Source of the DNA: an uncultured delta proteobacterium
Lineage (GTDB): Bacteria > Desulfobacterota > Binatia > UBA9968
DNA length: 64,000 nucleotides
Assembly (NCBI GenBank): GCA_963760795.1
Contig: CAVXEP010000016.1
Span: forward strand, 64,001-128,000
Direction of reading: 5' to 3'
How positions within the stretch are numbered: position 1 is the first letter of the stretch; the number at the start of each line of letters is the position of its first letter. The position numbers were made by a program, and so were the translations under genes. Of this stretch, positions 12,866 through 59,209 are shown one piece after another. Under the pieces are notes generated by a model that ran no database searches, was not told the origin of the DNA, and saw nothing but the letters and a program-made list of their open reading frames with translations.

Positions 12866-12940
12866 GATTGGCCGCAAAGAACGCAAAGTACACAAAAGAG
12901 AATCGAACCTTTGGGTGCCTCATGCGTGCCCTCCGTAGTA
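12866..12940. repeat. 9-bp periodic repeat family (CGCAAAGAA)n
   Basis: GATTGGCCGCAAAGAACGCAAAG also at 27330-27352; related copies at 21746-21775 and 32371-32400. Confidence 0.75.
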
Positions 12941-17098: not shown

Positions 17099-18258
17099 TT
17101 ACGGCGCGCCGAAGAAGCGCACGGTGTTGTCATAGAGCAGTTTGCGCTTCTGAGATTCTGAAAGATCCTGCCGTTCGAGAATTTCCAGGGCGGCGTTGTC
17201 GCGACCTTCACCATGGGGGAAGTCGGAGGAGAACAGTACATGATCTTCGCCGATCAAATCGAACAGCTGTTGCAGCATGCGGTCGTCGGCTTCGGCGGCG
17301 ATGAAAATTCTGCCGGATTTGACGTAATCGCGGATGCTGGCGCGCGGCAGGTCGCCGGCGTTCGGCATGCTCAAACCGAACGGATGGGCGCCGCGGTCGA
17401 GCGGCAAGTAGTGATCCATGCGCGAGACCATGTAAAAAATCCACTCGGCGCCGAATTCTAAAAACGCCACTTTCAAGTCTTGATAGCGGTCGAGCATGCG
17501 GTGGCCGACGATGGCCATAAAGGCCAGCTGGGCCGGCAGCGACATGCCGATGATGTGGCCGTCGTAAATGCTCCGGCCCAACTGCGCCAGCGGCGGATAG
17601 CTCATACCCATGTGCACGCACAGCGGCAGCTCGGTGCGGGCGAACTCATCCCAGATCGGCAGGAAGCTCGGATCGGAAAGCAGCCGTTCGCCGGCGGTGC
17701 CGAAGACCACCGCGGCGCGGGCGCCGAGGCGCTGCATCTCCTCGATGGCGAGTAATGCCTGGCGCGGCTCGCGCAGCGGCAGCAGGCCCGACCATTTGAG
17801 CCGCCGCGGATTCGCGGCGCATTGTTTGGCGACGAAGCGATTATAGGCGCGGCACAGCGCCGCTTCGAACTCCGGGTCGCTGGTCATATGAGCGTAAAGC
17901 GTGCTCGGAAAGATCATCTGGACGTCGAAGCCCATGCGATCCATATCGGCCAGCCGTGCGCTCGGGTCGTTGAGTGTCATGCTGCCGACCGAACAATGCT
18001 CGCGGTTCATGTTAGCGCCAAATTCGCTTAACACATTGCGCGGCGTGTTGGCTTGTTGGGCGCCGGGGCCGAGAGCGTGGGGCTCCAGCGAACCTTCGAT
18101 CAGCCAGCCGGCGTTGAAATTCCCCAGACCCGTTGTCGTCGTGAATCGTCACCGGGCGCGGCCGGCGGGCGCGAAACTGCTCGCGGTAAATCTTCCCACA
18201 TGCTGGGATTGATCGAGCCATGAGCGTCGGCGTCGAAGACGCGGTAACCTTGGAGCAT
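17099..18258 (-). CDS. Amidohydrolase family protein, frameshifted near N-terminus
   Basis: MLQGYRVFDADAH start in another frame; CVHMG, FLEFGAEW, FSSDFPHGE. Confidence 0.85.
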
Positions 18259-18390
18259 GATCTAAACTCTTCCTTTCGATTGGTGCTTCGAATGATGTGA
18301 CATGTTCCGTCTTTTTCTAACTCACCACGAAGGCACGAAGAGCACGAAGTTCGGAAAAATATTTATCTGAACCCTTCGTGTCCTTCGTGC

Positions 18391-18595
18391 CTCCTTCGAA
18401 AATACACGTGCAGCGATGATCTCGCATCGATGAACGACTCTCTGTTCCGTCATACCGGCGCAGGCCGGTATCCATGCCCGCCTCCCGCCTCTGGATGCCG
18501 GCCTGCGCCGGCATGACGATTCCAAGGAATGAACTCTCGGGAGGGTGCTTCCGGTATTTTCATGCTCTATAGGCGAGCGTAAGCTCACGGACACT
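18391..18595 (+). mobile_element. Putative non-autonomous site-specific element (copy A) with CT at both junctions
   Basis: Ends CT-CCTTCGAAAATACA and TATTTTCATGCTCTATAGGCGAGCGTAAGCTCACGGACA-CT shared with copy B at 30756-30992; excision restores CTTCGTGCCTTCGTGGTG. Confidence 0.7.
18448..18518. repeat. REP-like palindrome CGTCATACCGGCGCAGGCCGGTATCCA...TGGATGCCGGCCTGCGCCGGCATGACG
   Basis: Long inverted repeat; 18492-18519 is identical to 59128-59155. Confidence 0.85.
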
Positions 18596-18652
18596 TCGTG
18601 GTGAATATTCCCTCACGTCAAAATTAGAAAACCATGACTTTACTTCGGTGGT

Positions 18653-19675
18653 TCAGCGCAGTTTGCGCCGGGCATCGGCCAAAAAGCCGCTTTCTTCAAG
18701 ACTTCGGACGAAGGCCGGGTTGTTGAGCTGGTTGATATCGACTTGGGTGACTTTCGGATTGATGCGCGCGACGATTTTCTGAACGAGTTTCCAGGCGGCT
18801 AGATCGGGCAACAGATCGATGGTCGCCATTTGCCCCAGCACTTTGTACGAGGCCTCGGCATCTTCCAATCTTGGAAAGCGGAAACTTTTGCGCAGGATTT
18901 CCGTCACATCGAGTTTGGCGCTGGGGTCGTGAATCAACAGGACTGAATCGACCAAGCCTTTGAGCAACCTGGTGATGGTGTCGGGGTTGTGCGACGGCGA
19001 GTCGCGCAGGAAACAGATGGTCGTGCCTTGATAGGGGATCGGCAGTTTGCCGATGTCGGCGAGCACATTGGCGCCGGCGCGTTTGGCGGCTTCGCTGAAG
19101 CTGTACGGAATTACCGTGGCGTCGACGCCGCCGGAGCCCAACGCTTGGGTGACCGTCGCGGTATCGCCGAGGATGCGCATCTTGAGATCGTACTTATCGG
19201 CATCGATGCCGAGGTGATCCAGGGCGATCATCGTCTGCAGCCAAAAGCCGCCGCCGATGCTTTGCACGCCGAAAGTTTTGCCGCGCAGATCTTCTAACGT
19301 GCGAATCTCTTTGCGCGCGACCAGCTCGCGGGGAATTTTTGCCACGGCGGAGGCGACACACTGGAGGCGCATGCCGCCGGCGCTGGCGCTGAGCGCGTTG
19401 GCCGGCGAACCGTAGTTGTATTGCACCTGGCCTGAAGCGAGGGTCGACATGCTGAGCGAGCCGTTGCGCAGCTGCACCATGCGGACGTCCAATCCATATT
19501 TTCGGAAGGTGCCGCGCTCGACGCCGACCCACATGGGTCCGGCGGTTTCATTTTGGCCGGCGTAGGCGACCAGGATCGGCGCCAGAGGTTGCGCGCGGGC
19601 TGCAAACGAAATGAGGAGAAAAAGACTCACCACGAAGGCACGAAGGACACGAAGGTTTCGGATGGTTGTTTTCAT
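18653..19675 (-). CDS. ABC solute-binding protein (SsuA/NMT1/TauA-like)
   Basis: Signal peptide; FRKYGLDV, LEDLRGKTFGV, ALGSGGVDA. Confidence 0.88.
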   Translation of the reverse strand: MKTTIRNLRVLRAFVVSLFLLISFAARAQPLAPILVAYAGQNETAGPMWVGVERGTFRKYGLDVRMVQLRNGSLSMSTLASGQVQYNYGSPANALSASAGGMRLQCVASAVAKIPRELVARKEIRTLEDLRGKTFGVQSIGGGFWLQTMIALDHLGIDADKYDLKMRILGDTATVTQALGSGGVDATVIPYSFSEAAKRAGANVLADIGKLPIPYQGTTICFLRDSPSHNPDTITRLLKGLVDSVLLIHDPSAKLDVTEILRKSFRFPRLEDAEASYKVLGQMATIDLLPDLAAWKLVQKIVARINPKVTQVDINQLNNPAFVRSLEESGFLADARRKLR

Positions 19676-19706
19676 ATTTGAACCCCGCACCTTTGCGACA
19701 TTTAGC

Positions 19707-21693: not shown

Positions 21694-21712
21694 CAAAGAT
21701 TGTTCACCACGA

Positions 21713-21867
21713 AGGTCTAGCCGCACACCGCAACCGAATTGAAGAATGGCCGCAAAGAACGCAAAGGTGCGCAAAAACCAGATCTGGTAGGGGCGAATTG
21801 CGATACGCGCTCGCGGATGACGGCGCGGCGATCGCATGATTGCGCAGACGGAAAACTATCACGGTAG
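21713..21867 (-). mobile_element. Second insert type (copy C) at the same CT of the CACGAAG repeat
   Basis: Minus strand CTTGGTGCT-CT-ACCGTGATAG...GGTTGCGGTGTGCGGCTAGAC-CT-TCGTGGTGAA; removal restores CACCACGAAGAGCACCAAGTTCACGAAG. Confidence 0.5.
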
Positions 21868-27280: not shown

Positions 27281-27362
27281 TTTAACCACAAAGGGCACAA
27301 AGGTCACGAGAGATATTCGGATTGGGCGAGATTGGCCGCAAAGAACGCAAAGTTCGCAAAGG
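27281..27362. repeat. Composite of CACAAAG- and CGCAAAG-periodic repeats
   Basis: TTTAACCACAAAGGGCACAAAGGTCACGAG and TTGGCCGCAAAGAACGCAAAGTTCGCAAAG. Confidence 0.7.
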
Positions 27363-30755: not shown

Positions 30756-30992
30756 CTCCTTAGAAAATACATCTGAGGGGATGATATGCACAATGAAGCA
30801 TCCGGCCCGCCATGCCGGCGCAGGCGGCATCCAGCCCATCATCCACCTGGATACCGTTTTCAACGGTATGACGGACTCTGTCCGTCACCTGGATTCCGCC
30901 TGCGCGGGAATGACGAATCGAAAAGGGAAGCAACTTCTAGGAATGCGAACCATTTTCACGCTCTGTAGCCGTGCGTAAGATCATGATTCACT
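30756..30992 (+). mobile_element. Putative non-autonomous site-specific element (copy B) with CT at both junctions
   Basis: CTTCGTGCTCTTCATGC-CT-CCTTAGAAAATACA ... CATTTTCACGCTCTGTAGCCGTGCGTAAGATCATGATTCA-CT-TCGTGGTGAA; internal REP-like arms. Confidence 0.7.
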
Positions 30993-31038
30993 TCGTGGTG
31001 AAAACCTCTCCACAGCAAATTCAGTCCATTATGCAAAT

Positions 31039-32336: not shown

Positions 32337-32464
32337 CCTAAATCGGCGGCAGCCGCAACCGAATTGAGGAATGGCTGCAATGAACGCAAGGGGCTCAAAA
32401 AAGAATCGGGATTGGTCCAAGGGCGGAATTCGAACACTCCGAAGTTCGTGTCCTTCGTGGTGAG
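32337..32464. repeat. Composite repeat: GCCGCAACCGAATTGA end motif, CGCAA periodic units and an empty CT target
   Basis: CCGCAACCGAATTGA(A/G)GAATGGC(C/T)GCAA shared with 21728-21755; TTCGTGTCCTTCGTGGTGAG at 32445-32464. Confidence 0.7.
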
Positions 32465-59079: not shown

Positions 59080-59209
59080 GCCATGCCTGCGCAAGCCGGT
59101 ATCCAGGTGGGACACAGGGAACGAAGATGGATGCCGGCCTGCGCCGGCATGACGAGAGGAACGGAGCGTTGGCGCAGAACCTGAATTCCTGCGTGCGCGG
59201 GAATGACGA
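59080..59209. repeat. REP-like cluster (one left arm, two right arms)
   Basis: CATGCCTGCGCAAGCCGGTATCCA / TGGATGCCGGCCTGCGCCGGCATGACG / GAATTCCTGCGTGCGCGGGAATGACG; same family as the cargo of inserts A and B. Confidence 0.8.

Follow-up and report, generated by a model that had tools for sequence, protein, structure and literature searches.

A gene-less, MITE-like element, probably derived from an IS110-family insertion sequence, in the CACGAAG hairpin repeats of an uncultured soil lineage

What kind of sequence has split the arm of a palindromic repeat between two adjacent genes of an uncultured soil bacterium, and by what machinery could it have arrived there? The DNA studied, referred to here as the window, is a stretch of 64,000 nucleotides (C16:64001–128000) of a 6.58-Mb assembly (G000), which consists of 35 contigs and is 89% complete. 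The two genes flanking the locus lie on the minus strand, and the 394-bp spacer between them (18259–18652) contains the hairpin repeat in its filled state. The hairpin repeat in question is built of CACGAAG-periodic units: its left arm comprises three of them (TCACCACGAAG-GCACGAAG-AGCACGAAG, 18322–18349, plus strand), and is followed by the inner stem and loop (TTCGGA...TGAACC, 18350–18373) and by the inner two units of the right arm (CTTCGTG-TC-CTTCGTG-C, 18374–18390, plus strand). Exactly between these and the last unit of the arm, CTTCGTGGTGA (18594–18604, plus strand), lies a non-coding insert of 203 bp (18391–18593), hereafter copy A. It begins with CTCCTTCGAAAATAC (18391) and ends with ...CACGGACA (18593); CT is found at both junctions, and the boundary is ambiguous by this shared CT. 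Removal of 18393–18595 (201 bp plus one CT) restores CTTCGTGCCTTCGTGGTG and with it a perfect arm, just as an earlier note on this DNA, made from the letters alone, had proposed. The empty site that the note placed at 19627–19654 (minus strand) is likewise a true uninterrupted version of the target, located in a half-repeat. In its longest reading, the ORF at 18653–19690 has first codons that overlap this half-repeat (region 19627–19690), and its real start is, to judge from its sequence, probably a downstream GTG.

A second copy in the window, copy B (235 bp, 30756–30990, minus strand), has an extra nested hairpin and is located in a half-repeat; CTTCGTGGTGA comes directly behind it, at 30991–31001. 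It provides the second window match of both the left-end and the right-end motifs, and the pattern counts exclude chance: two matches against 0.11 expected for the left-end motif, two against 0.00 for the right-end motif, and six against 0.03 for the two-unit motif with at most one mismatch. On the minus strand, the outer unit of the left arm (18322–18332) constitutes a second target 11-mer, which is unoccupied, and further unoccupied CTTCGTGGTGA 11-mers are located at 21704–21714 and 32453–32463; in total, the window has six sites, two of which are occupied.

Both internal features reported earlier for copy A are present, namely a GAAAATAC/GTATTTTC pair and REP-like hairpins. The latter (18449–18474 and 18492–18517) constitute a cargo of two inverted, REPIN-like hairpins (18449–18517), and similar hairpins stand alone at many places elsewhere in the genome, including 59080–59207 of the window, where a REPIN-like pair and one more hairpin of the cargo type are found. 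Another periodic repeat family, with GCAAAG units and palindromes of its own (e.g., GCAAAGAACGCAAAG), is seen at 12874–12888, 21752–21766 and 27338–27352 of the window, and stands in place of the CACGAAG repeat at some orthologous sites of congeners. The minus strand of copy A contains a stop-free frame of 90 codons, which qualifies the earlier statement that the insert has no credible ORF; the frame is not a credible gene all the same, since the lengths of the copies (192–245 bp) differ by non-multiples of three.

The search for the ends suggested in the note, performed here with BLAST and with nhmmer profiles of both ends, revealed 18 left/right end pairs (192–245 bp) and six solo right ends in this genome, and none of the 18 pairs encloses a gene. 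The common left end is a conserved stretch of 13–17 nt (CTCCTTCGAAAATAC), the common right end extends over ~40–45 nt (..CATTTTCAT..TCTGT.GGCG.GCG.AAG.TCATG...CA), and the cargo between them is variable, consisting of one to three REP-like hairpins or, in some copies, of a different palindrome. Minimal forms of 81–88 bp, present in other genomes, are nearly cargo-free and essentially LE+RE. The claim that terminal inverted repeats are missing holds, as the two ends are unrelated to each other; no duplication is seen beyond the ambiguous CT. Since terminal inverted repeats and target-site duplication, the two hallmarks of classical MITEs, are both absent, the element is best termed MITE-like. 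The left-end motif is matched 0–59 times per genome among 31 congeners (59 in G019, 40 in G013, 39 in G022 and 17 in this genome), with control counts of 0–6 per genome, and are well above the control in about ten genomes. One genome carries near-identical young copies. Upstream of nine of the unpaired right ends of G019, no long copies were found, all nine being small variants. An E-value scan of 18200–18750 against Rfam yielded only sub-threshold chance matches and no family at the gathering score, and no convincing sigma-70 site was recognized by eye in the joined ends. An RNA library (X17) has two contigs that cover the element; carry-over of DNA is possible there, and transcription is not proven thereby. 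In public runs, compared as contigs only, neither a circle nor an excision product appeared, and at most 0.21 of the sampled words occurred in any one run. A single soil-run contig skips 18392–18597, with just 30 letters on one side, and most likely comes from another, empty repeat.

A right-end pattern scan of public genome contigs returned at least 115 stretches, 80 of which became loci. Among the matches listed, the titles of these 80 loci name MAGs called Deltaproteobacteria, Candidatus Binatia, Thermodesulfobacteriota, Syntrophobacter(aceae) and a few others, and 34 of 85 right ends are paired with a left end at 191–249 bp. In at least three loci, an opposite-strand open frame starting MSKK..GLDVHKK lies beyond the right end. 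Long copies with the same ends around an ORF, which the earlier note had proposed to look for, are represented by two complete elements of 1537 bp (L221 = G008:C456:9972–11508) and 1548 bp (L165:3069–4616). Flanked by CACCACGAAG and G(G)ACACGAAG, both are organized as LE, a leader of 242–245 nt upstream of the transposase gene, the gene itself (421–424 aa), 29–30 nt and RE. Pfam analysis of the protein encoded at L165:3313–4584 revealed the DEDD_Tnp_IS110 (PF01548; E-value, 9.2e-30; residues 19–167) and Transposase_20 (PF02371; E-value, 2.6e-18; residues 266–351) domains, and the L165 and G008 transposases are 78% identical, so the suspected link to IS110 now has a gene behind it.

Reverse-complemented, the right end of the small element gives the parent LE and its left end gives the parent RE (..AAATTTTCGAAGGAG), and full-length and miniature elements share the same two ends at the same position and orientation in the same repeat. 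The RE-derived end of copy A (18391–18407, minus strand) shares all of its outer 13 nt with the RE terminus of the G008 element, ATTTTCGAAGGAG (12/13 in copy B), the RE homology of the window copies to the parent being confined to 13 nt. The LE-derived end (~40 nt; 18553–18593, minus strand), the most conserved module of the family, matches the G008 element at 34 of 45 nt in both window copies; the minimal forms match it at 38–40 of 45 LE and 22–26 of 30 RE positions. At the parent's junctions (...CACGA-AG-TG...LE and RE...GAAGG-AG-G(G)ACAC), the dinucleotide is equal on both sides, with neither terminal inverted repeats nor target duplication, and the junctions of the miniature copies behave alike. 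Because complete elements with the same ends surround a DEDD_Tnp_IS110/Transposase_20 gene, the small element is interpreted as a derivative that arose by deletion and is antisense to that gene: the parent's transposase sense is the minus strand at copy A, and the CT of the window is AG in the gene sense. Genome G008 carries both the parent and a miniature copy.

The sequence CACCACGAAG occurs 117 times in the window's genome and its complement 130 times, compared with 6.3 expected for each. Tabulation of filled and empty sites, another suggestion of the note, gave 13 occupied sites and 161 empty repeat arms (a CTTCGTG unit before, no insert) among the 213 exact CTTCGTGGTGA 11-mers of the genome. 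That a lineage-specific repeat is targeted is borne out by the 37 two-ended copies from four genomes (18 from this genome, 17 from G019, and one each from G003 and G022). CTTCGTGGTGA adjoins the right end in all of them; on the left, 29 are flanked by a CTTCGTG unit and the other eight, outside a hairpin arm, by unrelated sequence. In the sense of the gene, the unit at 18594–18604 reads as TCACCACGA plus the core AG (left target and core), and these 9 nt and the core are conserved in 32–37 of the 37 copies; to the right of the core, G prevails at +1 (27 of 37) and the other positions are mixed, and the inner two units of the right arm represent a weakly constrained 'right target'. The nucleotides next to the constant target vary among copies. 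Insertion is thus site- and orientation-specific, with stronger target recognition on the left of the core. In other MAG lineages (L128, L142 and L118), the element adjoins variant units (CTCCGTGGT, CTCCGTAGTG and CTCTGTGGCG) of their own repeats, and the CT after the right end is constant there though the rest of the target differs, which extends the earlier observation of CT at both junctions of copy A. A third small module of ~42 bp (..AAACTCTTTCCCATTTGGTTGC.GCTGTGCCGCGCTAGGA..) is found between two direct copies of the CTTCGTGGTGA 11-mer, with examples outside the window at G000 C32:187047–187112, C1:209819–209881 and C32:57155–57218. It is often arrayed beside hairpin repeats, and its right-hand 11-mer, too, receives miniature elements (C5:39443, L044).

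Comparison of 18259–18652 with loci L021–L035 revealed that the genes flanking copy A are adjacent in congeners as well. In six congeners, the orthologous spacer is 22–23 bp long and free of repeats, and another genome has one of 52 bp; the spacers of G013 and G006 (154 and 153 bp, respectively) contain the hairpin repeat in a precisely empty state, the very orthologous configuration that had been looked for. G009 has a diverged copy in the repeat's other arm, and the spacers of G019, G021 and G008 hold other repeats; in G019, the closest relative (flanks 94–95% identical), a GCAAAG-periodic repeat stands at the site of copy A. This spacer is a repeat-turnover hotspot. Elsewhere in G019, a partial copy is joined head-to-tail to a full copy (right end-CT-left end). 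Independent mobility of the element is supported by the empty orthologous sites, the opposite-arm copy of G009, the insertions at CTTCGTGGTGA outside a palindrome, the head-to-tail junction and the range of left-end counts. One could argue instead that the insert has no mobility of its own and is a fixed module of a composite repeat, which spreads as a whole together with the hairpin, as 29 of 37 copies occupy the same position of the same hairpin repeat. This is hardly conceivable, however, with eight copies outside the hairpin arm, 161 arms empty and a full-length IS in the same site. Moreover, inserts that are 91–94% identical sit in hairpins with unrelated, strongly variable loops, and this, along with the empty orthologous sites, the counts of 0–59 and the head-to-tail junction in G019, refutes a fixed composite repeat.

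If the insert moves by itself, its mover might belong to a different class, and its history might have run in the opposite direction. A single-strand HUH/Y1 element, either an IS200/IS605-type miniature or a RAYT-moved REP/BIME module, could cleave at C|T and thereby insert 3′ of TCACCACGAAG. Such a mover would agree with the one-sided target, with the absence of terminal inverted repeats and duplication, with a cargo of REP-like hairpins, with the three Y1_Tnp matches in this genome, and with the cleavage by E. coli TnpA-REP at CC|T and C|T (PMC3333891). Single-strand HUH transposition nevertheless predicts a replication-strand bias, and none is seen: 13 right ends are co-oriented and 11 anti-oriented with the GC skew (n = 24), which is itself clear (mean absolute value, 0.037). 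Furthermore, the two ends have no similar subterminal hairpins, the nucleotides beside the constant target are variable, none of the 32 Y1_Tnp loci in 31 genomes is bounded by the ends (one nearby case is 1.4 kb off, behind another ORF), and an IS110 parent with both ends exists, making an HUH/Y1 origin very improbable. Scarcely better placed, though slightly so, is the proposal that the miniatures came first, the full-length form being a recombinase gene that landed in or was captured by a small element, or that the copies are selected small-RNA genes which hitch-hike like ssr9 in ISPpu9. Miniature forms do far outnumber full-length ones (recombinase in 3 of 31 genomes versus raised left-end counts in about ten), the LE part, at ~40 nt, exceeds what RNA-guided donor recognition requires, and the RNA-library contigs cover the element, with the reservation given above. 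Yet the 81–88-bp minimal forms are plain LE+RE fusions, as predicted for deletion derivatives; as for small RNAs, no Rfam family reached the gathering score, and the cargo is unrelated between subfamilies, meaning that there is no conserved RNA body. Both versions are improbable.

Two of the Y1_Tnp genes in this genome are intact and of the long RAYT-like type (G000 C9:1000–1960 and C25:48080–48790; L002 and L003), with HxH and YIHxNP motifs recognized by eye and no CACGAAG units around them. A further copy (C25:43983–44156) is truncated beside another IS-like ORF, and the ends accompany none of the three Y1_Tnp matches.

Taken together, these results identify the insert, with a probability of about 0.88, as a derivative of an IS110-family insertion sequence that arose by internal deletion, is non-autonomous and is MITE-like. 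Both of its ends are homologous to those of the parent, and the transposase gene is absent between them: ~13–17 nt of RE and ~40 nt of LE have been kept, the 245-nt leader and the DEDD recombinase gene have been lost, and REP-like hairpins occupy their place. According to the proposed mechanism, a full-length element would supply in trans the recombinase and a bridge/seek RNA encoded by its leader. The ends of the miniature would be joined into a circle with the junction RE-AG-LE in the transposase sense (...GGACA-CT-CCTTCG... in the window sense), and the circle would be recombined at the 2-nt core into TCACCACGA-AG, the outermost unit of the lineage-specific CACGAAG hairpin repeat, with no duplication and in a fixed orientation.

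Possible guides were sought in the leader. In the RNA sense, it contains CCACGAAG (G008) or CACGAAG (L165), corresponding to the left target plus core, and CGAAGGAG, corresponding to the left donor plus core (8-nt matches); both 8-mers occurred together in 11 of 20,000 Markov-resampled leaders. RNAalifold applied to four leaders predicted a closing helix and two stem-loops, in which the target-like and then the donor-like string are each located on the 3′ side of an internal loop; 1 of the 60 predicted pairs is compensatory, the four leaders being nearly identical and the fold a thermodynamic consensus. Right-guide counterparts were not convincingly found in the leader (best matches, 4–6 nt), and an Rfam search of the leader gave no match. 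From this predicted fold, we infer that the arrangement may resemble a bridge RNA. In IS621, the left guide reads 9 nt and the right guide 4 nt, core included, and the first loop binds the target (PMC11208160); the one-sided target described here agrees with these guide lengths.

The earlier note was right that no recombinase gene lies in the window, and none of the cognate type was found in the whole assembly (89% complete), where the IS used as a DNA query had its sole match in the ~40-nt LE of a miniature copy. The cognate recombinase is present in three of the 31 congeners (G004, G008 and G024), and was not found in G019, G013 and G022, the genomes with the highest left-end counts. The copies in this genome are therefore orphans, which may be immobile relics or may depend on an unassembled or foreign helper; current mobility in G019, G013 and G022 is unproven. 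Draft metagenome assemblies may lose repeated insertion sequences, but this is a weaker explanation for G019 and G013, as they comprise just 30–50 contigs each. The resident IS110 gene on C32, the sole PF01548 gene of this genome, was rejected as the parent, being 25% identical, devoid of the ends and located in a different repeat; seven IS110 matches in G003, G013 and G019 were also rejected, as they lack the ends. The C32 gene (G000 C32:23800–25800, L001; 408 aa) and an ORF beside it, which we take, from a sequence motif, to be DUF559-like, both lie among copies of that different palindromic repeat (CCCTCGCCC.TTGGGAGAGGGAAGGGT.AGGG), with which the gene may form another IS110/REP pairing. 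More distant relatives of the cognate recombinase (36–57% identical) are found in 21 of 401 genomes from the phylum, and were not used for guide/target covariation because their ends and non-coding regions are organised differently.

A more far-reaching reading, which is tentative and on balance doubtful, is that the family constitutes a cargo-swapping miniature replicator that persists without a cognate recombinase, the recombinase and guide RNA being supplied horizontally or transiently, with the ~40-nt LE acting as an extra cis-acting site (recombinase-binding or promoter). Such a role is ascribed to the LE since an RNA guide would need a far shorter sequence than this invariant segment. 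As a corollary, the CACGAAG hairpin repeat itself may have been shaped by the element's recombination, given that the repeat unit equals the left target plus core and resembles the RE terminus.

REPs are reportedly targets of insertion sequences; for IS110/IS1111 elements, such homing is known (PMC12288879; PMC5896051). The deletion-derivative reading opens no new category, as a 2025 publication had already described REPs as the destination of a non-coding module moved by an IS110 transposase. MITEPpu9, the ssr9 module of ISPpu9 (IS110 family) in Pseudomonas putida, is a gene-less satellite with IS ends that forms its own circles (PMC12288879). The likeness includes a gene-less module between copies of IS ends, insertion into REP/BIME palindromes at a dinucleotide, AG (=CT), that is invariant and stands on both sides of the module, orphan copies remote from the IS, tandem copies and a proposed mobilisation in trans. 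MITEPpu9 differs in having eight copies, compared with 24 in this genome and up to ~59 left-end matches in a congener, in carrying one sRNA gene in contrast to the interchangeable hairpin-repeat cargo found here, and in its own circles, the circle here being putative; in addition, most host genomes here lack the parent, and the host is an uncultured soil lineage (PMC12288879).

With the IS621 bridge RNA (PMC11208160) and the IS1111/IS110 seekRNA (PMC11187229) systems, the full-length elements share a DEDD recombinase, a long non-coding stretch that precedes the gene (IS110 type), a 2-nt core with no duplication, a repeated-palindrome target, an asymmetric target (long left, short right) and two predicted leader loops, target-like and then donor-like. 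The core here is AG in the transposase sense, as in ISPpu9, and not CT as in IS621 (PMC11208160), and guide pairing is putative here, unlike in both of these systems. A short subterminal repeat, ATGAAAAT/ATTTTC, whose copies stand ~30–40 nt and 7 nt inside the left and the right end, respectively, is at odds with the 7-bp/3-bp extensions given for IS1111 (PMC11187229). IS1111 in the QMITE2/GTAG-REP repeats of Coxiella is an IS110/IS1111-type element that homes to a species-specific palindromic repeat, and presence or absence at orthologous repeats dates insertions there too; the full IS inserts in that case, whereas here it is mainly a miniature derivative (PMC5896051). REPINs and BIMEs with their RAYTs are similar as mosaic, nested palindromic intergenic repeats, and the cargo hairpins are REPIN-like, but the ends, target and parent are of the IS110 type here, and no RAYT is associated (PMC3333891). 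A search of literature listings for a paper on these repeats in this lineage found none; IS110 catalogues or ISfinder could already list the IS.

Natural and high in copy number, the family exemplifies the cis requirements of an IS110/bridge-type recombinase, namely ~13–28 nt of RE and ~40 nt of LE, with the 81–88-bp forms as the most direct case. It also demonstrates asymmetric target reading in an uncultured soil lineage, and that miniature IS110-type elements can carry other repeats as cargo. For the genomes concerned, it accounts for part of their dense, nested repeat landscape and, at this locus, explains how a 22-bp gap between adjacent same-strand genes has grown to 394 bp.
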